Positions 35,366-48,313 of a stretch of DNA of 48,730 nt are shown here, piece after piece. The notes beneath the pieces were generated by a model, which did no database searches, was not told where the DNA came from, and saw only the letters and a program-made list of their open reading frames with translations. Position numbers and translations under genes: made by a program. Where the stretch lies: IMG/VR virus record IMGVR_UViG_3300012346_000137, positions 1 through 48,730 of that record. One strand, 5' to 3'. Each line of letters starts with the position of its first letter. Position 1 is the stretch's first letter. This DNA comes from a virus. Lineage: Duplodnaviria > Heunggongvirae > Uroviricota > Caudoviricetes.

Positions 35366-36595
35366 TTAAACGTTACCCATTTGTAATGATCCTTCTGTTC
35401 CTGCAAATGGATTGCTTGCAGAGTATGTTGCTCCAGAGTTTGTAGCATTATGATTATTACCACTGTTATCAGTTATCTGTGCATTTAAGTCTGTTCCTTG
35501 GAAGATTAATAACTTAGTTCCCATAAGATTAGGTAAAGTAGAAGTTGGTACTGTGAATCCAGCAGTGTCATAAACTTGAGTGGTAGTCCATCTGAAGTTA
35601 GTAATCAATCCATTGAATCCTGAACTAGGCTCATTACCATATCCAATTGTCAATGGTAAACCTTGGCTAGAGATAGATCCACTATAAGGAGCACTATTTA
35701 CTACATTACCATTTACAAACATATAAGCTGTAGATCCTACTCCCATTACACAGATATGAGTCCATTGTCCTGGAGTGAATGTAACTCCTGTAGCTAATAA
35801 AGGTGAATTGTTTGCCCAGAAATATAATGAGCTTCCACTACCTTCAATAGAGATAGCATTAGGAGCAGGGTATGCACCAAAGCTATATGGACGAGGGAAA
35901 CCACTAAAGTTAGTTACATTAACAAACATCTCAATAGTGAAGTCTCCTACAATATCAAAGTCTGTACTAGCAGCAATGCCTACATAACCTGGAGGAGCTT
36001 GATTTACAAGAACTGTCCATCCTTTACTTTGTAAATTTGCTCTAGCTGCAGAACTGTTTTCTGTAGGAACAGCATTTGTACCACCAGATAAATCTACATA
36101 TCCATTCTCTACAGCACTACCAGCTAACCATTGTAATGTATAATCTACAGCTGTTTCTGTAAGAGCATTGCCACTAAGAGAAACGTCATTAAGAGATGCT
36201 TCAGGTAATGTGATTGATGTAATAGCATTACTAGAAAAATCAAAACCTGTAAGATTATTAAATGACGAGTCTGATATATCTATAGCTCCTGTTATACCAC
36301 ATTGATCCATATCTATCCATTGTAAACTAGTAAGTCCTGCAAGGCTAGGAATACCAGCTGAGAAATCACTATCATCAAGACGTAATTGCTCAAGAGCTGT
36401 ACATCCTGTTAAATTAATAGACGTTAAAGATGGATCACCACTACCATCAATTAGTTCAGTATCACTTACGTCTACATTTGTTAATTGTGTAAGTCCAGAT
36501 AGATTTACTGTCTGTAAAGAGTTCCAGTCTGCATTAAATGTTTGCAGATTAGTTAGGTTTTGTAAACCTGTTATTGATGTTATTACTGTTGCCAT
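35366..36595 (-). CDS. LRR plus LamG/ConA-like lectin domain protein
   Basis: LTNLQTF/LTQLTNV/LEQLRL LRRs, C-cap as in 34074 gene, DFTIEMFV..WTHI..FVNG..FNGLITNFR. Confidence 0.7.
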   Translation of the reverse strand: MATVITSITGLQNLTNLQTFNADWNSLQTVNLSGLTQLTNVDVSDTELIDGSGDPSLTSINLTGCTALEQLRLDDSDFSAGIPSLAGLTSLQWIDMDQCGITGAIDISDSSFNNLTGFDFSSNAITSITLPEASLNDVSLSGNALTETAVDYTLQWLAGSAVENGYVDLSGGTNAVPTENSSAARANLQSKGWTVLVNQAPPGYVGIAASTDFDIVGDFTIEMFVNVTNFSGFPRPYSFGAYPAPNAISIEGSGSSLYFWANNSPLLATGVTFTPGQWTHICVMGVGSTAYMFVNGNVVNSAPYSGSISSQGLPLTIGYGNEPSSGFNGLITNFRWTTTQVYDTAGFTVPTSTLPNLMGTKLLIFQGTDLNAQITDNSGNNHNATNSGATYSASNPFAGTEGSLQMGNV

Positions 36596-37000: not shown

Positions 37001-37897
37001 TTATCCTACATTAAATATAGAAAGGTTAACAGATGGAGATGCAGGTCTAGTTGGATTAGTTCCTTCAGCAGTTGGTAAAAGTCTCATACCAGTAGCTTGT
37101 GACCACCAATAAAACTTAAGATATTGTCCAGCAGTTAATGCAATTGTATCTGTTATTTTTGCAAGTGTCTGATCATTTTGTGCTCCAGTGGTAGTAAATG
37201 TAAATGCTGAATTAGGTACAATTACATCATCAACTGTATACCAAACAGTTACATTATAGTTTGATGCACCACCTGTAAATGCAAGTTGAAGAGCAATACT
37301 TAAAAAGTAAGTTCCTGCATTAGTAACATTAACTCTATTATCTGGTCCTAATGTAAAACCATTTGCAGCCTGTGTTGAACCAATCAACACCTGATTAGCT
37401 ACAGTTGCTCCACCATTAGTTTGTAATGTAGAATCAAAAAAAGTTGCAGAATAAAGATTGGTGGTAGGACCTGGAATACCTTGTATTCCTTGCACACCTT
37501 GAATTCCTTGTTCTCCTTGTGGTCCCTGAATACCTTGTGGTCCTGGAGGTCCTTGTAAATCACCTACATCTTCCCAATCATTTGTTGCTGTATTCCAAAC
37601 ATACAAAGAACCATCTGACTCGATGATCCATGCTGTACCAGCTGCACCAGGATCTCCACCAGCACCTGCATAGAATGCAGATAGGTCAGGATAAGATCCT
37701 AACACTGTAAGTGCAGCACCTGTTTCACCTTGAATTCCCTGAGGACCTTGTACACCCTGAGGTCCTTGAGGACCAACAGGACCTTGTGGTCCAACAACTG
37801 TTGAACTAAGAGATATAATTAAATCATCAAGATTTAACCATCCTTTGTAGCCTTTGGCTACTTTTTCCCAAAAACCTGTCTTAATAAATGTAGGCAT
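37001..37897 (-). CDS. Collagen-like fibre protein with C-terminal beta-sandwich (C1q/BclA-like)
   Basis: Two Gly-X-Y (GPQ/GIQ) tracts separated by a LYVWN..WEDVG module. Confidence 0.8.
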   Translation of the reverse strand: MPTFIKTGFWEKVAKGYKGWLNLDDLIISLSSTVVGPQGPVGPQGPQGVQGPQGIQGETGAALTVLGSYPDLSAFYAGAGGDPGAAGTAWIIESDGSLYVWNTATNDWEDVGDLQGPPGPQGIQGPQGEQGIQGVQGIQGIPGPTTNLYSATFFDSTLQTNGGATVANQVLIGSTQAANGFTLGPDNRVNVTNAGTYFLSIALQLAFTGGASNYNVTVWYTVDDVIVPNSAFTFTTTGAQNDQTLAKITDTIALTAGQYLKFYWWSQATGMRLLPTAEGTNPTRPASPSVNLSIFNVG

Positions 37898-37902
37898 AAT
37901 AA

Positions 37903-37932
37903 CAAAGATATGTTGTTTTTTAGTATATACAA
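37903..37932 (-). promoter_or_regulatory. Bacteroidota-type promoter, near-leaderless transcript
   Basis: TTG-N19-TATCTTTG; -7 box ends 5 nt before ATG37897. Confidence 0.65.
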
Positions 37933-37989: not shown

Positions 37990-39174
37990 TTATAAATTAA
38001 CCTTACTACCAACCACTGCAAAGAACAGCATTGGAATAGAAGGATCTGTGCTTACACTAGTCTTTAGACCAGTGTTGAACTTAAACCTTTTTGTAATTGA
38101 ATAGTCCATACTGAAGCCTGTAAGGAACATCATATCTTCACTTATTGTAAAGGTGTTATCCTTTATTCCATAAGTTACAGGGCTCCCAGAGATATATAGG
38201 TCAGGAGATATGGTCAAGCGTTTATTGATTTGAAATGGTTTAGTGTAAAACACTAATAAAGAATGACTTGTAGTGAACTGCTCAGGTGTTTTTTGAATAC
38301 TCACTGTAGCATTGATACCAGTCACACCCCACTTTCCTAGAGGATATATCTGTGCGTATGTAAGAAAACCAAATGTGTTACCAAATGCATGTACTAATGT
38401 AGCACCACTGTTATCTATTCTTGATAACTTACCATCATCAAAGTTCATTTTAGTGTAGCGTCCACTAAGAGCAAACTGTTGTAAGTTACTCCATACCATT
38501 CCTGTCACTCCCCAACTCACATCTCCAGCCATGGATGTTTGAGATATACCACTAGTTACAATTAAGTTAACTGAGTTATCTAATGTTTGTCCTGCTGTAA
38601 GATCAGAGTTGAATAGTATGGGATTCATCTTAGCTTGTGATTTACCACCCCCCTTACTGCTAGACTTTCCTCCAGATTTAGACGAACTCGAGGAACTTTT
38701 AGACGAACTTCCTCCAGAACTACTTGATTCTGAACTACTTGTAGTTTCACTGCTAGACGAAGTACTAGACGAACTAGCAGCACTAGATGCTGCAGCACTT
38801 GCAGCTGAGCTAGCAGCAGAGGAAGCTGCTCCACTAACAGCAGAACTTACAGCTCCACTTACAGCTGATGAGACAGCAGATGCTGTAACAATTGTAGAAG
38901 TTTGTGTTGCTTGAGCCACTGCACACGCAGAAAACTTTTTGTACTCTTCGTAAACTTGATTAATCCAGGCTTGAAAAGCCCCACTATAAACATCGTTAGC
39001 TGTAAAAGCTTTAGATTTATTATAAAAAACAACAATGGTAGAGCCAGAAAGAGGTATACTAAAAGTGCTAACAACTTTAGTGCAAGGGTCTGTAAAAGTT
39101 TGTATAAGAGTTTGAGAATACGCATATACTGGTAGTATTACTACTGTTATTAGAATTAAAATAAACTGTTTCAT
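37990..39174 (-). CDS. Exported protein with Ser/Ala linker and probable outer-membrane beta-barrel
   Basis: Signal peptide MKQFILILITVVILPVYAYSQ; long S/A/G tract; C-terminal half of alternating amphipathic strands. Confidence 0.6.
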   Translation of the reverse strand: MKQFILILITVVILPVYAYSQTLIQTFTDPCTKVVSTFSIPLSGSTIVVFYNKSKAFTANDVYSGAFQAWINQVYEEYKKFSACAVAQATQTSTIVTASAVSSAVSGAVSSAVSGAASSAASSAASAAASSAASSSSTSSSSETTSSSESSSSGGSSSKSSSSSSKSGGKSSSKGGGKSQAKMNPILFNSDLTAGQTLDNSVNLIVTSGISQTSMAGDVSWGVTGMVWSNLQQFALSGRYTKMNFDDGKLSRIDNSGATLVHAFGNTFGFLTYAQIYPLGKWGVTGINATVSIQKTPEQFTTSHSLLVFYTKPFQINKRLTISPDLYISGSPVTYGIKDNTFTISEDMMFLTGFSMDYSITKRFKFNTGLKTSVSTDPSIPMLFFAVVGSKVNL

Positions 39175-39890
39175 TATTTAGTGAAGATTCCTTTTTTAAT
39201 CATACGATCAAGGATTCTTGCACATGCTACATCTAACGCTTTCTTTGTTGCTATAGAGATGGTTGATTGATTAAATTTTACAGGGTCAAGACTAGCATCT
39301 GATAATCCTGAGGTCTCTTTAGTAGTTTTAGCTTCACCTAGTCCAGAGCCAGAGAATACAACTCCAGTCTCAGCATCAGTGAATCTCACCTGAAGACCAA
39401 TACGTGTAACCATTAACTGACTAGTAGCCAACTTAGCTGATACAGTTTCATCTTCTGATATACTGTAGTCATAGCATTCTATAGTTACAAAGTATTTAGC
39501 TAGTCTAATCTTTCCTCTTCCATCCAACTTATCTTCAGAGATTCCTGCTTGGCTGGCTTGAAACTGCTTAACCATTCTGTTTTTGATTTCTGTCTTATCT
39601 TCTGTAAACTTGAACCTGTTAAGGTTTTCAAGGTATTCCATTGAAATATTGGCAACACCAAGTCCCACTCTCTTTTCTTTAAGTTCTGGATACATTTCAT
39701 ACATTTCATCATTGATGCCACATTTAAGTATTTGAATAGGAATCTGAGGACCATCGTAATCTAGGAAGTCAGAAATGTCAATAGACTTCTCAAAGCTAGC
39801 TTTATACTGCTCTGTAGAAGTCTTTGCCAATTGTGCACTTGTTACATTTATATATAAAAAGGTAACAAGAAATATCAATAAATATTTCAT
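39174..39890 (-). CDS. CsgG/HfaB-like exported protein
   Basis: Signal peptide; LGVANISMEYLENLNRFKFTE, AKYFVTIECYDY, IGLQVRFTDAETG. Confidence 0.65.
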   Translation of the reverse strand: MKYLLIFLVTFLYINVTSAQLAKTSTEQYKASFEKSIDISDFLDYDGPQIPIQILKCGINDEMYEMYPELKEKRVGLGVANISMEYLENLNRFKFTEDKTEIKNRMVKQFQASQAGISEDKLDGRGKIRLAKYFVTIECYDYSISEDETVSAKLATSQLMVTRIGLQVRFTDAETGVVFSGSGLGEAKTTKETSGLSDASLDPVKFNQSTISIATKKALDVACARILDRMIKKGIFTK

Positions 39891-40516
39891 TAGTCTTTTA
39901 TTTTACCACATTTGATACATTCGTAATCGCCATCAGAATCTACATCAGCAAAGATGTGATCACATTGTCTATGTGCTCCTAACTCGTGTTCAAGTTTAAG
40001 TTTCTCCATAGCTTGCTCATGCTCTTGTTCATCAAGTTCTAAAGCTTGTCTATGTTCTTGCTCATCCTTTTTAAGTTCAAAGTTTTGTTTATTCTCTTCT
40101 TTAGCTAACTCTCTAGCTGCAGCAGCACCTGCTACAAATGCATCAGGGATGATTGGAGCTACAGGTTTGTTAGATTCTTTCATGTCGTTAGTATGAGACA
40201 AGGTAACACCATCTTCCTCATCCATCTTCTGTACTAACATCTTATCCTTGTCAGTATCACTGAACCAGTAGTCAATGATTTTACCATAAGAGCCAATGAA
40301 TGCACCAAGCATTAACATCAACAACTCTTTCCATTCTGCAGCAGCAGATATATTATTGTTAAGAGCTAAGAATATACCACCTATAATTAATAAGAATCCA
40401 CCCAATACTAATCCTGTGATGTACCATCTACGTAACATCATAGCATTTAATAACTCTTTGAACCCTGAAGGTTGTTCGTTTACTTTCTCAGTTGGTTTTG
40501 ATTTAAATAAGTCCAT
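39890..40516 (-). CDS. Two-TM membrane protein with C-terminal Cys/His metal ribbon
   Basis: Two hydrophobic helices; LGAFIGSYGKIIDYWFSD; CDH..DVDSDG..CIKC. Confidence 0.7.
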   Translation of the reverse strand: MDLFKSKPTEKVNEQPSGFKELLNAMMLRRWYITGLVLGGFLLIIGGIFLALNNNISAAAEWKELLMLMLGAFIGSYGKIIDYWFSDTDKDKMLVQKMDEEDGVTLSHTNDMKESNKPVAPIIPDAFVAGAAAARELAKEENKQNFELKKDEQEHRQALELDEQEHEQAMEKLKLEHELGAHRQCDHIFADVDSDGDYECIKCGKIKD

Positions 40517-40617
40517 ACGTTTGCGATTGTTTCTTGGTTTTGTTTTACTAGCTCAGCTTTTTTTATACCAGATCTTCTAGATCTCTGAGCAACAGGTTTT
40601 GCTTTTTTCTGTGCCAT
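40480..40617 (-). CDS. 45-aa basic protein (not in ORF track)
   Basis: MAQKKAKPVAQRSRRSGIKK...NQLRK; ATG 3 nt after upstream stop. Confidence 0.55.
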   Translation of the reverse strand: MAQKKAKPVAQRSRRSGIKKAELVKQNQETIANVWTYLNQNQLRK

Positions 40618-40620
40618 AGA

Positions 40621-40926
40621 TTACCACTTTGGTGCTTCTTCTTTAAATTCATCACCCTCTTTCTTCTTAGGAGCAGGTGCAGGTTTAGCTGCAACTTCTT
40701 TCTCCTTGATGATAACTGTCTTACCACCACCAGCTGCTTGAGACTGCTGATTAGAGTTTGTGATGTTAATTACTGGAGCAGCTGCTGGAGTTACTTCTTT
40801 CTCATCTCCACCACCTGTTAATTTGTTTGTTACAAAGCCACCTACAGCTAATGTAATTGTACTAACTAGACCTATGATAATGTTCTTAATAGAGGTGCCA
40901 GTTGATTCTTCTTTTTCTTCTGCCAT
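40621..40926 (-). CDS. Single-TM membrane protein
   Basis: IIIGLVSTITLAVGGFV helix plus low-complexity tail. Confidence 0.7.
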   Translation of the reverse strand: MAEEKEESTGTSIKNIIIGLVSTITLAVGGFVTNKLTGGGDEKEVTPAAAPVINITNSNQQSQAAGGGKTVIIKEKEVAAKPAPAPKKKEGDEFKEEAPKW

Positions 40927-40931
40927 GTTGA

Positions 40932-41303
40932 TTATTTTTTAATGGTTATTTGACGTTTATATTCTTTACCAGATATATCAATTAATACAACTGAGTAGTC
41001 TCCAGAATTAACATCTGAGTAGTCTAACTCTTTGATTACCAAGTCTTTATCAGCTGTAAATCCTGTAGCAGATTTAACATCTCCTTTAAGATCAATTAAC
41101 TGCAAAGAGTATTTGGCTCCAGTAGTAACTGATAAATTAGCAATCACCTTTCCTGTAGATATAGGAGGATTGATACTGTTGATCTGTGTCACCTTAGCTT
41201 GTACACCAAGTTCGATAGTTGGTGTAGATGCAACCTTTGTGCAAGCAAGGAGTAACAATATAGATAGGAGATACACTCCAAATAGTACTGATAGTTCTTT
41301 CAT
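40932..41303 (-). CDS. Lipoprotein made of a stand-alone T9SS C-terminal-domain-like fold
   Basis: Lipobox LLLAC; NPP, YSLQLIDLKG, SGDYSVVL, KRQITIKK. Confidence 0.55.
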   Translation of the reverse strand: MKELSVLFGVYLLSILLLLACTKVASTPTIELGVQAKVTQINSINPPISTGKVIANLSVTTGAKYSLQLIDLKGDVKSATGFTADKDLVIKELDYSDVNSGDYSVVLIDISGKEYKRQITIKK

Positions 41304-43000
41304 TAGAAATTATTATATCCTGTTAATTTAATTTGTGTAGTGTTCAACTTAATTCCCAATTGGTTACCAGACATGTCTGATGCATCCATATTAGAAGTCA
41401 CTTTGATATATGAGTTGATGTCTAATCCATTTTGTAATGTAGAGAATAACACTTTAAATGGTACACCTCCTGGGTATGGGATAGCTACATTCTTATCTAC
41501 AGCACCAAACTTAACTCTACCTGGTCCATGGGAAGCAAATACTAACCACATAGGAACTTCTGCTGTAACAGATTCAAACTTCACTTTAGTCTCATCGTAT
41601 ACAAACTCAAATTGTAATCCTGACATGCTAGCCCCTTTACCATCTACAGCCACTGGTACAGTGAACTCATTACCAGTTACAGTGATGTTATTAAGACTCA
41701 CTTCTATAGTTGTATTTGGTTTAGGTGTATTCACAGCTGATGAGTTTAAACTGAATGATTGTATTGTTCCATCAGGTTTAACCACTTGTGAGCTATGTGA
41801 TCTATTGATGTCTCCAGGGATTAAGTATTTAAGTCTTAAGTCTTGAGCCACTGTAGATGTTTTAAATCTAGCTCCATATAAGTTAGCTTGTTTCCATCCT
41901 GCTGGAGATAATGTATCATAATCATTTGCCAATAGCAAAGGGATATTATATAACGTTTGTCCAGCAATAGGCTTTACCACTGTATCTACAGCTATCACTT
42001 GAGCAAATAATGCTGTAACATCGTTACCATCAAACTGTTTGTTCATTATAATATCAGAAGCAACCCAGCTAATTCCAGACTTGAAGTTAGCATTAGTGAA
42101 TGTGCCATCTAAGTTTTGTTTAACAAACTCATTCTGAGCTGATGTATAATCACTTATACTTACAGCTTTATTTAAGTAAGAAGGTATGCTATCACTAGGA
42201 ATTGTAGCAAACACTTTATATACAGTGTTAGGAGTTAACTCAGATCCTAAGAAGAATGTACCATCAGGTCCAGGAGTAACTTGTGCTTTTACAACACTGG
42301 TTGCTGAGTCTACAAACATTAACTTAGGAACAATGCTTGATACATCCACTTGTCCATTAACTAATGCATTAGCACTAGGTATAGGAGTGATATAAGAGTT
42401 ACGAGGCTTAGGCATAAACACAGTGTTATATCCTGTGTATTGATTTCCATAAGATTGTGCAGCGTTAAAATACACTGAGTCATATGCAAATCCAGCATCA
42501 ATGTTCTCCACCTTAAATCTTAAATAAGCAAGATCGCCATCTACAAGATTTGCTGTAGAGGCTGTATTCACCCATATACGATTGATAGCTTTGATACCTC
42601 CTTGTGAATAGTTATACTGAGCATAGTTAAAGTTGGTAATACCATCTGTAGTTGTGTTGTATATATTCTTATTGAATGTATAGCCAGGATAGTATGCATT
42701 TTGAAACGTAGCTGATGCTCCTTGTGGAAGAGCTGAACCTTGGGCTCCAGCTGTAGGGAATACAATATCAATAAAATTGATAGCTGTAATCTGATGCTCG
42801 AAGTCTAAATAAAAAGATCTTGCTGAAGAATTGTTGTTCTTATAAGCAAGAGCTAATTGTACAGTGTCTCCTTTTTTAATAGCCCCACCACGAATGTTTA
42901 CGCTTTGTTCTGTAGGACGTAATACTAATTCAGGGATTTGAGCATAAGAAAATGTTACAATTATATTTAAAATTGTAACAAGAAATAATAGTTTCTTCAT
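41303..43000 (-). CDS. Exported cohesin/dockerin-like scaffold protein
   Basis: Signal peptide; cohesin-like termini (VPVAVD..MSGLQFEFVYDETKVKF); central dockerin-like AVSISD / ASDIIMNKQFDGND. Confidence 0.6.
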   Translation of the reverse strand: MKKLLFLVTILNIIVTFSYAQIPELVLRPTEQSVNIRGGAIKKGDTVQLALAYKNNNSSARSFYLDFEHQITAINFIDIVFPTAGAQGSALPQGASATFQNAYYPGYTFNKNIYNTTTDGITNFNYAQYNYSQGGIKAINRIWVNTASTANLVDGDLAYLRFKVENIDAGFAYDSVYFNAAQSYGNQYTGYNTVFMPKPRNSYITPIPSANALVNGQVDVSSIVPKLMFVDSATSVVKAQVTPGPDGTFFLGSELTPNTVYKVFATIPSDSIPSYLNKAVSISDYTSAQNEFVKQNLDGTFTNANFKSGISWVASDIIMNKQFDGNDVTALFAQVIAVDTVVKPIAGQTLYNIPLLLANDYDTLSPAGWKQANLYGARFKTSTVAQDLRLKYLIPGDINRSHSSQVVKPDGTIQSFSLNSSAVNTPKPNTTIEVSLNNITVTGNEFTVPVAVDGKGASMSGLQFEFVYDETKVKFESVTAEVPMWLVFASHGPGRVKFGAVDKNVAIPYPGGVPFKVLFSTLQNGLDINSYIKVTSNMDASDMSGNQLGIKLNTTQIKLTGYNNF

Positions 43001-43681
43001 TTATAGTAGTTTGTTTACCAGCGAGTTACACGCTTTCTTTAAAGCAATTGATAAGTTTTGTTGGTTAAACTTTCCACCTTCGTCTATTAGGAGTGTGGAA
43101 ACACTCGTTTCATCTGCAGATTCTTCAACAAGAGCTTTGCGAATGACTTTACCATCTTTAATAATCGTTCCATATAATCTGATTACAACTGATTCTTTAT
43201 TAGAATGCATCACAGAGAAGCTAGATTGAGTCTTCAATACATCTAAGTATACAACATCAATGTCCAGTCTAATGTCTGAAGCATGGTCAATGTCATATTC
43301 CTTGTCTTGTATCACTTCTTCTACGATGTTCTTGATACCAAACTCAAGGTTACGATTACCAACCAGTGGTCCCATCTTCACCTTGTTAGTAATATTACCT
43401 ATTGCTACAGATTTGTTTTGGTAACTGATGTTTCCAGGAATAGAAATAAAAGAACCATCAAGTGTATGAGATAATCTATTACTCACACGTCTAGGAACGT
43501 CACTACCTGTAGCAGACAATATTAACATTGTAGTTTGAAATGTCATAGCTAATACCACCCAGGTACAAGCTAGATATACTATCCCTAAGAATAATTTACT
43601 TTCCTTGCCCACGATATGGTTTTTTGTTTTTATCTTTTGGTCCTGATGTTTTAGTTGCTTTACCACCTTTGCGTTTTCCAA
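43001..43681 (-). CDS. TM-anchored TolB-N/CsgG/LptE-like fold protein (start uncertain)
   Basis: TM helix; VAIGNITNK, LEFGIKNIVEE, ALKKACNSLVNKL. Confidence 0.5.
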   Translation of the reverse strand: MENAKVVKQLKHQDQKIKTKNHIVGKESKLFLGIVYLACTWVVLAMTFQTTMLILSATGSDVPRRVSNRLSHTLDGSFISIPGNISYQNKSVAIGNITNKVKMGPLVGNRNLEFGIKNIVEEVIQDKEYDIDHASDIRLDIDVVYLDVLKTQSSFSVMHSNKESVVIRLYGTIIKDGKVIRKALVEESADETSVSTLLIDEGGKFNQQNLSIALKKACNSLVNKLL

Positions 43682-43724
43682 AAGTGATTTTCATTCTGTC
43701 AGAGCCACCTTTTGCTTTTGCCAT
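43596..43724 (-). CDS. 42-aa basic protein (not in ORF track)
   Basis: MAKAKGGSDRMKITFGKRKGGK...KKPYRGQGK; ATG 6 nt after endolysin stop. Confidence 0.6.
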   Translation of the reverse strand: MAKAKGGSDRMKITFGKRKGGKATKTSGPKDKNKKPYRGQGK

Positions 43725-43730
43725 GTTGGT

Positions 43731-44330
43731 TTATTTTAATAATGAATAATATTCGTTAAAGTGTTTAATACGATCAGGTAAACCAATTGTACCACCATTC
43801 ACACGCTTGGTAATCATTGTTACCACTTCTATAGCAGCACCCTTGTCAGCTAACTGATTCAACTTGTTCTTGTTCCAGAACCATGCTGCAGAAGCCAAAG
43901 GATATTTGGTAGCTACTAAGTCAGGGTTCTCTAATATACTATCTTCAACAGCATCATCAAATGCCTTATAGTTATCACGTCCTGTTAACTGTATGAATCC
44001 TCTTCCTCTGAACTTATACCCATCACCAGACGCTTCGTTACCATTACCCATACGACCACCATACACTCTGTTAGCAATCTTCTGTGGTTTCTTAGCATAG
44101 TCTAAAGCTAGAGCTTCACTAGGAAAATACTTCTTGAATATACCCTGTAAACCTTTAGCTGAGTAGTTTAGATTCTCTTGTGTGATTCTAAAGCCACCAG
44201 ACTCATGACCACATTGAGCTAAGAAATGAGCTAGTCTTAATGGTGTGTTAACAGCAAACTTCTCCTGGATACCAGGGATTTGATTAATTACACTATCAGG
44301 AACATGTCCTTTTAATTTACTTAGATCCAT
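43731..44330 (-). CDS. GH19 endolysin
   Basis: AHFLAQCGHESGGF, ENLNYS, FRGRGFIQLTGRDNY, SAAWFW, TKRVNGG. Confidence 0.92.
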   Translation of the reverse strand: MDLSKLKGHVPDSVINQIPGIQEKFAVNTPLRLAHFLAQCGHESGGFRITQENLNYSAKGLQGIFKKYFPSEALALDYAKKPQKIANRVYGGRMGNGNEASGDGYKFRGRGFIQLTGRDNYKAFDDAVEDSILENPDLVATKYPLASAAWFWNKNKLNQLADKGAAIEVVTMITKRVNGGTIGLPDRIKHFNEYYSLLK

Positions 44331-44517
44331 CTTTTTTCTTTTTTGTAGCAGGCTTCTTCTTTTTAGCAGGAGCCTTCTTTGGTTTTTCTTCTACTACCAC
44401 TTCAACCTTAGGTTCAAGCTTGTAGATTTCTTCAATTGATTCTTTCTTAACTTCTGCATATGTAGCAGCAGGTTTTGTAGAGAAGAACGCTTTGATAGCT
44501 TCGATGATTTTTTTCAT
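44317..44517 (-). CDS. Small protein with Lys-rich tail
   Basis: Amphipathic N-terminus, KKAPAKKKK tail. Confidence 0.6.
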   Translation of the reverse strand: MKKIIEAIKAFFSTKPAATYAEVKKESIEEIYKLEPKVEVVVEEKPKKAPAKKKKPATKKKKDGSK

Positions 44518-44518
44518 G

Positions 44519-45118
44519 TTATTTGATTTTCCAATAAGAGCTTACACCAAACGTGAGTTGTTCACCAATGGTTGAGCCTACGTTGATACCAACGATTTTA
44601 TCTTTTTTAGATTTATAAAGAATGCCTAGATTGGCACCAGTTACTCCCAATGTTTTGTTACCCTCAATACCACCACCAAAGAATAAGTTAGCTGTTGGGG
44701 GAGCATAGTGGGTGATTGTTTTAGTTGTTGTGATTGTAGGGATCTTGTAGTTAGATCTTACAGAACGTCCTTTAATACTGTTCTGATTCACAGTGTCTGT
44801 GATAGCTACATAGCCTAGTGTATCTAATCTGATAGTATCCTTAAATTCTACAAGAGCTAAGTACTTACTTAACAAATCATTATACTGAGCTAAAAGCTTA
44901 GGATAGTTTGTGTCAGCAATATACTCTGGAGGAGTGGCAATAGTATCATGTAACACCTTGCCTTTCAATGTCTTATAAATAGTTGTGTCATGCACAGACC
45001 AACTTGTATCGTGTACAGTTACTGTGTCAGACTTCCTGTGCTTAGGAGAGCAACCATTCTTAGAGAAGGCTACATATAACACCAAGACTAATATTATACC
45101 AGTTAATAGTTTACTCAT
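44519..45118 (-). CDS. Spanin-like membrane protein
   Basis: N-terminal TM/GC motif, DT-rich stalk, C-terminal beta strands ending YWKIK; inside lysis cassette. Confidence 0.5.
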   Translation of the reverse strand: MSKLLTGIILVLVLYVAFSKNGCSPKHRKSDTVTVHDTSWSVHDTTIYKTLKGKVLHDTIATPPEYIADTNYPKLLAQYNDLLSKYLALVEFKDTIRLDTLGYVAITDTVNQNSIKGRSVRSNYKIPTITTTKTITHYAPPTANLFFGGGIEGNKTLGVTGANLGILYKSKKDKIVGINVGSTIGEQLTFGVSSYWKIK

Positions 45119-45353
45119 TACCTTTTGTTTTATTTATCCATTTGTCAACAGATGCAATACCAAAGCATGCAATCGTTAAGATTTTAAATGAGTCAAATAT
45201 GAACTCATTCACCAACAATGGTTTGTTCATAGCCCCTGTAACTATATCAGCTACAGCAAAGATGATCATCATAATGAACGCTGCAAATCCAATTACAGCC
45301 TTCTCATTGATTGAGTTGCTATCATTAAATAGATCGTGGAAGAACTTTTTCAT
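45111..45353 (-). CDS. Holin-like protein
   Basis: 80 aa, two hydrophobic segments, upstream of endolysin. Confidence 0.55.
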   Translation of the reverse strand: MKKFFHDLFNDSNSINEKAVIGFAAFIMMIIFAVADIVTGAMNKPLLVNEFIFDSFKILTIACFGIASVDKWINKTKGNE

Positions 45354-45624
45354 TCTTAGTTTTTAATTCGTTATTAGGAAGAATTCCTACTACTTCTCTC
45401 ACTACAGATACAGGAGGAAGTTGTGCTGGATAGCTAGCTGATTTATACACCTGTCTTTCAAGGTTATCAATCCTGGTCTTGTCTATATTAGACTGAGCCA
45501 TTAACGCTTTAACGTCAGCTTTAATCTCATTGACATCGTTCCAAATTAGCATAGCTAGGATGGAAACTAAACTTGGGAACACCCAAACTTTAAAGGATTC
45601 AATTGTAGGACTACTCTTTGTCAT
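45325..45624 (-). CDS. Single-TM coiled-coil protein (holin/antiholin-like)
   Basis: VWVFPSLVSILAMLIW plus heptad region. Confidence 0.5.
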   Translation of the reverse strand: MTKSSPTIESFKVWVFPSLVSILAMLIWNDVNEIKADVKALMAQSNIDKTRIDNLERQVYKSASYPAQLPPVSVVREVVGILPNNELKTKNEKVLPRSI

Positions 45625-45737: not shown

Positions 45738-45769
45738 CAAAAATATGGTAAATTTTTGATATAGCCAAA
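45738..45769 (-). promoter_or_regulatory. Bacteroidota-type promoter for lysis/envelope operon
   Basis: TTTG-N20-TATTTTTG on minus strand. Confidence 0.7.
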
Positions 45770-45777
45770 TTTATTTT

Positions 45778-46338
45778 TTATACAGTACCATACCAGATTC
45801 CCCATTCTATATTGTATGTAGAACCTGGTTGTGCTGTAAAACTATATGATATAGCTGTAAAATCGCAAGTGGTATTTGTATTAGCTACCCTTACACCATT
45901 TACATTTATGAAAGAATATATAGGTTGACAAGGACAAGCTCCATAACCATTAGAAAACGCTGATATAGTTACAGTGGATCTACCCTTAACGTAACCTACA
46001 CCATTGCCTCCAAACGTCAAGAAGGTACCAGCATCGTTACCTCTTTCAGAGTTAGTGGTTTGACTACTATTAAATGGACCATCGTAAGCACCATTTTCAG
46101 CTGTACCTTCCCACTGACCATATGAGTCCATAGACATAGAACATCCATCATACAATTGACCTGTATTCTGAGAATAGTTTATAGTGGCAGCAGGCATGGC
46201 ATATCCATAAAACTCACTTATTGAGTCAGGAGTACCTTTCCCTGCTAAGGAGCTTAAGCTTCTTAGTGATCCTGTAGATACATTTAGTTCATTACGTATT
46301 TGATTTATACTTAAAGGTCCACTATTTGGTAATGCCAT
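45778..46338 (-). CDS. Tail-fibre-associated protein
   Basis: MALPNSGPLSINQIRNEL...PDSISEFYG N-terminus typical of genes following S74 fibres. Confidence 0.6.
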   Translation of the reverse strand: MALPNSGPLSINQIRNELNVSTGSLRSLSSLAGKGTPDSISEFYGYAMPAATINYSQNTGQLYDGCSMSMDSYGQWEGTAENGAYDGPFNSSQTTNSERGNDAGTFLTFGGNGVGYVKGRSTVTISAFSNGYGACPCQPIYSFINVNGVRVANTNTTCDFTAISYSFTAQPGSTYNIEWGIWYGTV

Positions 46339-48313
46339 TTATAATAGATTTAAGTTCCTCAATTTGGTTTGCCTGTGCCTCAATCTGTTTTTGTTGTTCT
46401 TTAAATGCTTCAATAAATAATCCACTAAAGTTACCATAAGATACATTGTACATTCCATCATTATCTTGGTTAACAACTTCAGGAACTACTTGTAATGTTT
46501 CTTGAGCAATAACACCAATCTTTGTTTTTTTATCTTCAGAATCTATTCTTGTATAAGATACACCTCTTAACGCTAACACTTTATCAAGAGCGTTTTCAAT
46601 AGTCTTTACATTCTCTTTTACTCTAGCATCTGAATATGCAGTAACATCTCCAGCCATTGTAAGATTACCAGACATATCCATTTGAAATCTATTACCTGCT
46701 GCAGACCATCCTCCAATTCTAAACACATTGTCGTCATCAAGACCCATGTTAATTGCATAAAATCCTCCTCTATGGAAAGACATAAATGCAGAGTTCCCAC
46801 TTGTAGAATATGCTTGTAATTTAGCAGAGTTAGAATTGTTTACTGCTTGACCTCCATTGTTTGTTTGGAAGTATTGTATACCTGTCCAATAATATGAATT
46901 TCCTAATGCATAATTTAAATTATAAACATCAGTTGCTGTAGCAGCATTACCAGATATACTTCCAGAGCTTGTGATGTAACCATTAGGATTGGTGCTATTA
47001 TATGGAGTGTAGCCAAGAGCACTTGTTACATCACTAGATGAAAGAGTGATTGCTCCTGTTCTAGTATTGAACGATGTTACACCACTAGCTATTGTCCAAC
47101 TTCTATCAGCTGACAAATCATAAGTAGTTCCATTTATAGTTAACGTTCTGCTAGTAGGTACGTAACCACTTAAGTCTGGTGAGTAGACAGGGATATTTAA
47201 AATACCTGTAACATTACTGTATGTTGCAGGACCACTAGATCCAGTTGTTGTAAGACTAATTGCTTGTCTAGCTCTGCCAGTTGTAAAGTATTCGTAAGTT
47301 CCTTCTGGAATATTATCTGTAGTTAAACTTACAGCTCCTGTAAAACCATTTACAGATACAACAGCATCAGTGGTATCCACCTTCTGCCATTTTGTACCAT
47401 CAAATATAGCCCAGTCACCAACATGCCATTCAGCAACACCATCTAAATTAGTTGTACCATATACATCTACAATGTAGTAATATCCTTTAGTACCTACACT
47501 ACTAACCAACGTAGGAGTGTTTGTAGCAGCATTCCATACACCTTGATATATTGAACCTCCAATTAGACTATTGATTTGATTTTGTAACTTACCAAAGGCA
47601 GTTAATATACTATCTGTGGCAGTGATGTTTCCTCCTGTAATGTTAACTCCTGATAATATCTTTCCTGTTACAGCACTATTGTTTAATGTAACACTTGCTA
47701 CACCAGGACCACTAGCTGTAGCTTCACCAGTTAAATCAGTGATGTAGTTTCCTGAAGGAGCTGGTGTATATCCAAGAGCAGTTGTTATATCAGAAGATAC
47801 AACAGGAGTTGCAGACGTGATTAATCCTTTAGCGTTTGCAGCTATCTTTAAGAAGGTATTACTTGTATATACATTAGAATTAACTGTAGCTAATGTAAGT
47901 GTAGTGTTAGAACCAGTGTTACCAGTTCCAGTTACATCACCTATAAAGCTCAGTGCTCCTGAAGGAATGAATACAGCCTCAGTTGTAATTGCTGTAACAC
48001 GTCCTTTACCATCCACAGTGAGTTTAGGAATGGCTGTAGAAGATCCATATTGACCAGGAGTTGAATTCACTGTTGCAAGAGTAGCAGATGCCACACCAGG
48101 ACCTACAGCAATAACATCTCCTGTTAACTGAGTGATTCCTGTTCCACCAGATAATATAATGTCAGCAATAGCATCATTAATCTTCTCTAAAGCAACTCTA
48201 TAGTTATCATTAGTGTTCACACCAATGTACAACAAGTTCTCACCTTCATAGATGACACACTTACTGTCGAGTATTACTGGACAAGCACCTTGGTTTGAAC
48301 AATTAAGATTCAT
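46322..48313 (-). CDS. Tail fibre with C-terminal peptidase S74 intramolecular chaperone
   Basis: SDARVKENV..RGVSY..IGVIAQE..VSYG; internal LTGD/E..GPG repeats. Confidence 0.88.
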   Translation of the reverse strand: MNLNCSNQGACPVILDSKCVIYEGENLLYIGVNTNDNYRVALEKINDAIADIILSGGTGITQLTGDVIAVGPGVASATLATVNSTPGQYGSSTAIPKLTVDGKGRVTAITTEAVFIPSGALSFIGDVTGTGNTGSNTTLTLATVNSNVYTSNTFLKIAANAKGLITSATPVVSSDITTALGYTPAPSGNYITDLTGEATASGPGVASVTLNNSAVTGKILSGVNITGGNITATDSILTAFGKLQNQINSLIGGSIYQGVWNAATNTPTLVSSVGTKGYYYIVDVYGTTNLDGVAEWHVGDWAIFDGTKWQKVDTTDAVVSVNGFTGAVSLTTDNIPEGTYEYFTTGRARQAISLTTTGSSGPATYSNVTGILNIPVYSPDLSGYVPTSRTLTINGTTYDLSADRSWTIASGVTSFNTRTGAITLSSSDVTSALGYTPYNSTNPNGYITSSGSISGNAATATDVYNLNYALGNSYYWTGIQYFQTNNGGQAVNNSNSAKLQAYSTSGNSAFMSFHRGGFYAINMGLDDDNVFRIGGWSAAGNRFQMDMSGNLTMAGDVTAYSDARVKENVKTIENALDKVLALRGVSYTRIDSEDKKTKIGVIAQETLQVVPEVVNQDNDGMYNVSYGNFSGLFIEAFKEQQKQIEAQANQIEELKSIINGITK

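Follow-up and report, generated by a model that had tools for sequence, protein, structure and literature searches.

Why a phage should carry a run of genes whose products are all directed to the cell envelope is the question raised by the locus described here. The stretch of DNA analyzed (hereafter, the window) comprises 48,730 nucleotides, the first 48.7 kb of the 112.7-kb IMG/VR virus record IMGVR_UViG_3300012346_000137, which is estimated to be 98% complete; its source is a crAss-like phage with a host among the freshwater Bacteroidota. Seven co-oriented genes were identified on its minus strand, at 37990-43681, via an open reading frame (ORF) listing and inspection of hydropathy and N-termini. 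They are named by the length of their products in amino acids (in the direction of transcription: g226, g565, g123, g101, g208, g238 and g394; Table 1). An initial annotation, made from the sequence alone, had read them as a phage-built outer-membrane or surface apparatus, consisting of a CsgG-like channel, a beta-barrel, a cohesin-dockerin pair and a cargo domain of the host type IX secretion system (T9SS), placed behind the lysis cassette. The analysis presented below alters several of these components and points, tentatively, to a single envelope complex that would equip or remodel the surface of the infected cell.

A co-conserved set of exported proteins

As initially annotated, every gene in the block carries an export or membrane signal, which takes the form of a signal peptide in g565, g238 and g394, a lipobox in g123 and transmembrane (TM) segments in g226, g101 and g208. 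The genes are tightly packed, with three 1-base overlaps, one abutting junction and one gap of 5 nt, the exception being a gap of 104 nt before g208. Synteny was counted across the 56 related loci for which full flanks were available; the five partner genes g565, g101, g394, g226 and g208 are each present in 50-55 of them, in agreement with the expectation that the block is conserved as a unit. Sequence identity and flanking genes were compared over 84 loci. Measured against the window proteins, the median identity is 82% for g238, 60% for g101, 56% for g208, 55% for g226, 44% for g565, 41% for g394 and 38% for g123, such that the slow-changing members (g238, g101, g208) are periplasmic or inner-membrane proteins and the fast-changing ones (g565, g394, g123) are predicted to be exposed. 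The tail-fibre-like genes that flank the block on both sides in the window are common to just 0-4 of the 84 loci.

The g238 family was used to assess how widely the module is spread. It comprises 5813 non-redundant homologues in a set of 5.8 billion proteins, many of them encoded on contigs of 100-130 kb, and a CsgG-fold gene was found on 518 IMG/VR contigs. A single-protein scan of 185,579 species genomes recovered a close relative in just two small contigs of metagenome-assembled genomes (MAGs), and the module is, judging from this sequence distribution, a possession of phages and not of the host. The two MAG contigs (L088 and L089) belong to bins labelled Thiobacillus and Micavibrio, in which phage contamination is probable. 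A megablast search of the 5.7-kb block against GenBank phages gave no match, PADLOC found no defence family, and a search of sequencing runs returned no RNA run with the sequence, the best DNA run containing 0.26 of the sampled words.

A core of six genes, encoding the cohesin protein (g565 in the window), g101, g208, g238, g394 and g226, was found in three unrelated lineages, namely crAss-like phages, the Flavobacterium myovirus immuto (160 kb) and TARA marine contigs, in nearly the same order and with identities that fall to 26-51% for four of the genes and stand at 68% for the N-terminal part of g208. In immuto, the cohesin protein (gp015) is followed by a g101-like protein (gp016, 36% identity), a g238-like protein (gp017, 51%), a protein whose N-terminal domain resembles that of g394 (gp018) and a g226-like protein (gp019); this set lies among genes for DnaB, ribonucleotide reductase (RNR) and nucleases, with the endolysin gene about 6 kb off. 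On the TARA marine contigs, the module is located beside genes for RecA, an exonuclease and DnaB. It includes there a 646-aa protein with Cohesin (43.4 bits) and genuine Por_Secre_tail (30.8 bits) domains, a 104-aa protein that has 68% identity with the N-terminal 94 aa of g208 (the TM part), and a protein with the architecture of g101 (one TM helix and a Pro/Ala/Lys-rich tail), in which sequence similarity to g101 is undetectable. A secreted Endonuclease_NS, a CsgG-fold lipoprotein (34%) and a g394-like barrel protein are also encoded there. Homologous secreted DNA/RNA non-specific endonucleases (Endonuclease_NS; 41-50% identity, each with a signal peptide) are encoded in or beside the module at nine loci from the three lineages. 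Because immuto and the marine contigs carry the core beside replication genes, we read it as a horizontally mobile unit that follows the lysis genes in one lineage only. The initial description of the module as lying behind the lysis cassette hence applies to part of the crAss-like clade and fails in immuto and the marine contig, where the neighbours are replication and nuclease genes.

These comparisons bear on the possibility that the genes are independent envelope morons (an exclusion lipoprotein of the T5 Llp or TraT kind, a decoy for the host T9SS, a receptor mask) that have gathered at a permissive, co-regulated spot. The accessory genes do vary by lineage, comprising lectins, extra lipoproteins, the nuclease and a phosphoesterase, and gene order is shuffled among loci. 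Furthermore, the surface-exclusion lipoprotein TraT has the fold of g238 (Z 7.6), and an exclusion role has been proposed for phage T9SS cargo (PMC7468147). However, the joint presence of six core genes, in nearly the same order, in three unrelated lineages is hard to explain without functional coupling, and at three junctions the stop codon of one gene shares a base with the start codon of the next. A mere gathering of morons is accordingly considered quite unlikely.

A CsgG-fold protein beside a tethered outer-membrane barrel

The structure of g238, the best-conserved protein of the module, was modelled with AlphaFold2 (AF2) at a predicted local distance difference test (pLDDT) value of 82.8. 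A Foldseek search with this model retrieved CsgG as the best match (E 5.6e-7), followed by PelC (E 4e-6), and a VIA search returned CsgG (Z 12.6, root-mean-square deviation 3.1 over 179 residues), PelC (9.8), DUF330, LptE (~8), FlgT and TraT (7.6). The g238 sequence itself has no Pfam match at E-values up to 0.1, and so falls below the threshold of CsgG (PF03783). Its family, which consists of 206 clusters in a representative library of 1.84 billion proteins, yields a profile that matches CsgG in the PDB with an E-value of 0.0015, and among the 36 members that were aligned, 15 match Pfam CsgG PF03783 (best E 3.7e-23) and 7 match LpoB. Foldseek, VIA and the Pfam matches of remote homologues therefore agree on the CsgG fold that had been proposed for this protein.

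The fold being that of CsgG, and phage CsgG homologues having been reported in pelagimyophages and in Melnitz (PMC7029224, PMC9004378), g238 might itself be an oligomeric outer-membrane secretion pore, and the initial annotation had regarded it as a channel. Several features stand against this. There is no lipobox Cys in g238, the signal peptide of which ends in TSA/Q, and the close phage relatives in the crAss-like clade are alike in this respect; most of the distant cellular homologues have a lipobox. The hairpin equivalent to TM1 of CsgG is six residues shorter and bears a polar, charged tip (profile alignment and monomer model), and the segment that leads from the last long strand to the C-terminal helix falls about 16 residues short of the length needed for the TM2 hairpin (sequence and monomer model). 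Moreover, the CsgE, CsgF, CsgA and CsgB families are absent among the neighbouring products scanned with Pfam and NCBIfam, as expected from the earlier statement that the locus is not a curli system. Lacking the lipid anchor and both membrane hairpins, g238 is therefore ill-equipped to form a curli-type pore, and its acting as a CsgG-type secretion channel is highly improbable.

Based on its model, g238 looks more like a periplasmic partner of a barrel, of the PelC or LptE type. It has the hairpin-less fold of PelC, and a barrel gene, g394, adjoins it with a one-base overlap. A complex prediction for residues 21-238 of g238 and 21-90 of g394 gave no answer (score 0.00), which counts neither way. 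Fusions of g238 to a barrel (Rosetta-stone proteins) were considered and discarded, the long g238-like proteins being caspase fusions of cellular lipoproteins and not barrel fusions. Four such distant homologues (P0201, P0223, P0232 and P0250) are lipoproteins that combine an N-terminal CsgG/LpoB-like domain with a caspase domain (Peptidase_C14), confirmed with Pfam in three of them and recognized by eye as the same pattern in P0232.

The g394 protein consists of a small Cys-containing alpha/beta domain (residues 22-81) in which two Cys are invariant, a low-complexity linker rich in Ser and Ala (85-181) and a C-terminal barrel (185-394). The AF2 model has an overall pLDDT of 66.7, with values of 70-86 in the barrel, and presents 12 long antiparallel strands at residues 186-393. 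Its best Foldseek matches are NanC (E 2.4e-7), FapF (2.7e-7), KdgM (1.6e-6) and EspP (6.9e-6), within an overall range of 2e-7 to 1e-5. The model and the Foldseek matches together substantiate the outer-membrane beta-barrel recognized initially, and specify it as 12-stranded. No significant Pfam, NCBIfam or PHROG family was found for g394, hence no sequence membership in the families of 12-stranded barrels. The barrel part has 857 homologues, and none of the best 120 of these 857 has a precomputed Pfam domain. The linker, encoded at approximately 38650-38920 of the window, runs through (A/V)SS-type, poly-Ser and Lys/Ser/Gly-rich (KS...GG) segments in turn. It differs greatly in length among the homologues, whose proteins span 217-545 aa, and its Ala/Ser part is weakly predicted to be helical, reminiscent of the coiled-coil-plus-linker layout of FapF.

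With the 12-stranded solute channels NanC and KdgM among its best matches, the barrel could alternatively serve auxiliary uptake, as a channel for small anionic solutes (nucleotides, oligosaccharides) that feeds the infected cell in conjunction with the nuclease and the sugar-binding proteins. The association with secreted Endonuclease_NS in three lineages and the presence of RNR and phosphoesterase genes nearby in immuto and at locus L039 are in keeping with such a role, as is a weak lead, from an Atlas feature search with g394, to a cyanophage outer-membrane protein family. The barrel matches are generic, however, with FapF and autotransporter barrels scoring equally, no Endonuclease_NS is encoded in the genome of the window phage, and a porin needs neither a tethered domain nor a ring protein nor inner-membrane partners. 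Uptake is thus an improbable function for the module.

Secreted, lipid-anchored and inner-membrane partners

The secreted multidomain protein g565 scores 22.0 bits against Pfam Cohesin (PF00963), just under the cut-off of 24.1. Among its 28 relatives, 19 match Cohesin (best E 3.5e-7) and 5 contain a C-type lectin domain, and the cohesin-like domain described initially can hence be retained. The dockerin that was thought to accompany it cannot. Dockerin_1 (PF00404) was detected neither in g565 nor in the 28 relatives at E-values up to 0.01, and the likeness consists of a faint PDB-profile match to the ScaH dockerin (E 0.35) and a conserved GDxNRSHS motif. The lipobox Cys21 of the small lipoprotein g123 is invariant in 25 relatives. 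A T9SS C-terminal domain (CTD; type A, TIGR04183/PF18962) had been suggested for this protein, and the scans do not uphold it: TIGR04183 matches with an E-value of 0.2 and 11.6 bits, versus a cut-off of 23, weak matches occur in 2 of the 25 relatives, and hhalign assigns probabilities of 0.3% and 2.3% to the alignment of g123 with, respectively, the genuine CTD at locus L085 and the C-terminus of immuto gp015. A search of the PDB with the g123 profile found nothing.

The membrane-anchored g226 has, judging from Pfam matches, a YajG-like domain. The match of the window protein to PF03923 (Lipoprotein_16) is below the cut-off (E 0.003; 17.8 bits versus 25), as are those of its relatives with a single exception (the L039 orthologue, with 25.4 bits), yet 22 out of 25 relatives match the family, with a best E-value of 1.7e-6. 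In the alignment, the relatives occur as long, TM-anchored and short, signal-peptide forms; the window g226 has a TM anchor and not a lipobox. No meaningful match was obtained with the g226 profile against PDB sequences, and an Atlas feature search provided LptE/DUF4410 as a lead only. The notion that g226 is a second CsgG paralogue was not borne out, since a comparison of the g226 and g238 family profiles yielded a probability of 9.9% and aligned only a C-terminal helix motif, KFNQ...S.A.KKA.

Three codons are candidates for the start of g226 (TTG 43681, GTG 43666 and GTG 43612). The start is probably GTG 43612 rather than TTG 43681, because the longest reading is overlapped by a conserved microprotein gene (43596-43724). 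With GTG 43612, the N-terminus matches the length seen in relatives and the overlap is reduced to just 17 nt. An ATG at residue 52 is used by at least one gene caller and would delete the membrane anchor. The microprotein is 62-79% identical in 35 related loci (tblastn), and locus L002 has a called gene of 40 aa at the corresponding position; what had been listed as an overlapping micro-ORF is thus a real, conserved gene.

The remaining two proteins, g101 and g208, have no known family in Pfam or NCBIfam, and g208 has 6183 homologues, none of them with a Pfam family. Given its two TM helices and cytoplasmic tail, g208 was considered as a GldL/PorL-like protein, an assignment that was dropped for want of an NCBIfam or Pfam match in support.

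Relation to the lysis genes

The gene directly upstream of the block encodes a GH19 endolysin, as annotated, with a Glyco_hydro_19 domain well above the Pfam cut-off (38.1 versus 25.5 bits). It is preceded by three further genes, g199, g80 and g99 (Table 1). Many loci have a relative of the holin-like g80 just ahead of the CsgG-fold gene, at approximately -300 to -500 when positions are counted from the g238 homologue; about 20 of the related loci so arranged contain no GH19 within the 8 kb fetched upstream (e.g. L039 7627-7896, L044 7685-7945). The g199 gene is found after the barrel gene in some relatives, and g99 matched no Pfam or PHROG family. The layout of g99 and g199, flanking g80 with overlapping codons, may resemble an i-spanin/o-spanin pair; scans with PHROG and Pfam found no spanin family match, and the architecture of both proteins is compatible with that role by inspection alone.

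Two promoters had been proposed to flank the block. The upstream one (45738-45769) fits the Bacteroidota consensus TTTG-N20-TAnnTTTG, which has 8 matches in the window versus 2.8 expected, and is kept as a candidate; the other (37903-37932) has a -7-like TATCTTTG box only. A scan for sigma-70 promoters produced chance-level results (37 sites versus 36.9 expected). Minus-strand terminator-like sites are absent from 37990-45100, consistent with the earlier claim that the block contains no internal terminator. The transcription unit probably starts at the upstream promoter and takes in g99, g80 and g199 as well, so that the envelope block would be co-transcribed with the lysis genes from one host-type candidate promoter. 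Another full match to the promoter pattern, at 41506-41539 on the minus strand, lies inside the coding sequence of g565 and may be due to chance or be an internal promoter for the downstream genes.

This arrangement provides the basis for the main rival explanation, in which the block performs an outer-membrane lysis step as a stand-in for spanins. The inner-membrane-anchored g226, g101 and g208, together with a periplasmic ring and the tethered barrel or lipoprotein, would link the membranes and open the outer membrane after the action of holin and GH19. Several observations favour it: the block directly follows GH19, behind one candidate promoter and uninterrupted by minus-strand terminator-like sites, and 40 of the 56 related loci have GH19 upstream; in many loci the holin-like g80 immediately precedes the CsgG-fold gene, and in others g199 follows the barrel. 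Canonical spanin families were unmatched in the scans of this phage, and the g394 linker, with around 100 residues, could span the periplasm. Nonetheless, the neighbours of the module in immuto and on the marine contig are genes for DnaB, RNR and nucleases, the immuto endolysin being about 6 kb away, and the large cohesin/lectin proteins and the secreted nuclease have no evident part in membrane rupture. In addition, g99 and g199 beside g80 would already supply an i-spanin and an outer-membrane lipoprotein, and a spanin function would hardly call for as much as 5.7 kb. On balance, we deem a lysis function for the block somewhat unlikely.

Table 1. Features of the envelope block and its surroundings. 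Positions refer to the window unless a related locus is named; counts are numbers of related loci carrying the gene, out of 56 with full flanks.
Feature	Position	Strand	Related loci (of 56)	Remarks
g394, tethered barrel	37990-39174	minus	55	Signal peptide ending YS/Q; AF2 and Foldseek
g238, secreted CsgG-fold protein	39174-39890	minus		Signal peptide ending SA/Q; best-conserved gene of the module
g208, inner-membrane protein	39890-40516	minus	50	Two TM helices, cytoplasmic coiled-coil-like region, CxxC...CxxC end; hydropathy
g101, bitopic inner-membrane protein	40621-40926	minus	55	One TM helix, Pro/Ala/Lys-rich tail; hydropathy
g123, small lipoprotein	40932-41303	minus	40	Lipobox LLAC; one beta-rich domain of ~90 aa
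g565, secreted multidomain protein	41303-43000	minus	55	Signal peptide ending SYA/Q; C-terminal cohesin-like domain (~residues 442-565)
g226, membrane-anchored YajG-like (Lipoprotein_16) periplasmic protein	43001-43681	minus	53	Hydrophobic anchor at residues 28-56
Microprotein gene, 42 aa, Lys/Gly-rich	43596-43724	minus		Between endolysin and g226; tblastn
GH19 endolysin	43731-44330	minus	40 (upstream of block)	No signal peptide; Pfam Glyco_hydro_19 E 1.9e-9; PHROG 181 endolysin E 1.4e-70
g199, exported protein, possible lipoprotein	44519-45118	minus		199 aa; N-terminus ends ...SKNGC; beta-rich C-terminus
g80, holin-like protein	45111-45353	minus		80 aa; two TM helices and charged tail; hydropathy; relatives 50-65% identical
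g99	45325-45624	minus	30	99 aa; N-terminal TM helix and heptad-like periplasmic tail; ORF and hydropathy
Candidate Bacteroidota-type promoter	45738-45769	minus		TTTG-N20-TATTTTTG; pattern search; heads lysis and envelope unit
Tail-fibre-like gene	46322-48313			Peptidase_S74 chaperone domain; upstream flank
Collagen-like gene	37001-37897			Downstream flank
Gene for leucine-rich repeat and LamG protein	35366-36595			Downstream flank
Endonuclease_NS, locus L039	10779-11381			Example from a related locus
Endonuclease_NS, locus L085	5050-5670			Example from a related locus
Endonuclease_NS, locus L001	4202-4780			Example from a related locus

A proposed envelope complex

Under the interpretation that we favour tentatively, the proteins encoded by the block are inferred to act together as a complex. 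The barrel of g394 would be its outer-membrane element, and g238, probably a ring, would be the periplasmic partner of g394, in the manner of PelC with PelB or LptE with LptD. This ring-under-barrel arrangement is put forward because the fold relatives of g238 include barrel partners or ring-formers (PelC, LptE, CsgG and TraT), and because the adjoining gene encodes a barrel. The inner membrane would be engaged through g226, g101 and g208, of which g226 perhaps shares the adaptor role with g238. The assembled complex would place, hold or serve phage binding proteins at the cell surface, comprising the cohesin/lectin proteins and, in some lineages, the secreted nuclease. Its likely purpose late in infection would be to mask or occupy the receptors or glycans of the cell and of its debris, to exclude other phages, or to stick cells together. 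A role at the surface fits, since fast evolution and predicted exposure coincide in the same members of the set.

Several points weigh against a surface complex of this kind. Its purpose is deduced from domain types only, folded proteins do not fit through a 12-stranded barrel, and g565 has no T9SS CTD. The position of the module directly 3' of the endolysin in 40 of the 56 crAss-like loci fits lysis at least equally, and in other loci the holin-like g80 and the lipoprotein-like g199 shuffle into the module. Lastly, co-conservation could stem from a shared regulatory niche and not from membership in one machine. A bolder version would make the core a trans-envelope machine of an undescribed kind, its parts being a ring of hairpin-less CsgG-fold subunits, the tethered barrel, the YajG-like protein as adaptor and the small inner-membrane proteins; this machine would export or anchor cohesin/lectin adhesins either without the host T9SS or docked on it. 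We judge such a machine unlikely. If it did exist, the infected cell or its debris would bind glycans of the host type, and thereby capture neighbouring hosts or keep progeny off the debris.

Comparison with known systems

The closest parallels in phages are the CsgG/CsgF clusters without curlins described in pelagimyophages (the HTVC008M group; Zaragoza-Solas et al., PMC7029224) and in the Methylophilales phage Melnitz (Buchholz et al., PMC9004378), for which uptake, sibling capture and lysis control have been proposed on bioinformatic grounds (PMC7029224, PMC9004378). They share with the module described here a lytic aquatic phage as carrier and a small operon for exported proteins, without curlin subunits, in which one gene codes for an envelope protein of CsgG fold. 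Those clusters, however, encode a recognizable CsgG with barrel hairpins, as well as CsgF, and belong to phages of Proteobacteria, whereas here, in phages of Bacteroidota, the CsgG-fold protein has neither anchor nor hairpins, CsgF is missing, and the partners comprise a separate 12-stranded barrel alongside YajG-like, cohesin and inner-membrane proteins. E. coli CsgG (PDB 4UV3, 6LQH) is the best structural match of g238, and remote family members match PF03783, but g238 has no lipid anchor, no TM1/TM2 hairpins and no CsgE, CsgF, CsgA or CsgB partners.

Among cellular systems, the PelB-PelC exporter (PDB 9H80; PelC 5T0Z, 5T11) also pairs a separate barrel with a ring protein below it that has this alpha/beta fold and no hairpins. 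It differs in that PelC, with about 150 aa, is a lipoprotein and has no sequence relationship to g238, and that PelB has a tetratricopeptide repeat domain and a larger barrel; there are no polysaccharide synthesis genes at the phage locus, and the g238 ring is predicted by analogy. The order of an N-terminal domain, a flexible linker and a C-terminal 12-stranded barrel seen in g394 is shared with FapF (5O65) and the type Va autotransporters EspP, NalP and BrkA (Foldseek E 3e-7 to 1e-5), from which g394 differs in having no sequence family membership and no evident plug or pore helix. T5 Llp and TraT of the F plasmid are mobile-element proteins that are put in the host outer membrane to alter surface behaviour. 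Both, including TraT with its g238 fold, are products of single exclusion genes, in contrast to the co-conserved set of six or seven genes found here. Secreted surface proteins that make use of the host T9SS have been described, by bioinformatics, as phage-encoded cargo of the 'Cryophage' (Bellas et al., PMC7468147). The module shares with it an origin in phages of Bacteroidota and, through the Por_Secre_tail of the marine cohesin relative, a possible use of the T9SS, but the window g565 lacks a CTD and the module brings in addition a barrel, a ring-fold protein and membrane proteins of its own.

A literature search found no paper on this Bacteroidota-phage module. The initial remark that no experimental description exists agrees with the literature found, but needs to be qualified by the bioinformatic descriptions of phage CsgG clusters and T9SS cargo. 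Against the papers found, the composition of the module is new: it shares a theme with the phage CsgG clusters, every component being different except for the fold of one protein. The module is very common, occurring in at least three unrelated phage lineages with hosts in the Bacteroidota, which as a phylum have a central place in the turnover of polymers in fresh and sea water. With more than 5 kb devoted to it per genome, and strong constraint acting on its periplasmic core, it must be of importance to infection. Its function bears on how phages of Bacteroidota without recognizable spanins pass the outer membrane, and on why lytic aquatic phages carry secretion-like genes, the 'curli' puzzle of the pelagimyophages. 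Since one of its carriers, the Flavobacterium phage immuto, is cultured together with its host, Flavobacterium sp. LMO8, the question is directly testable.

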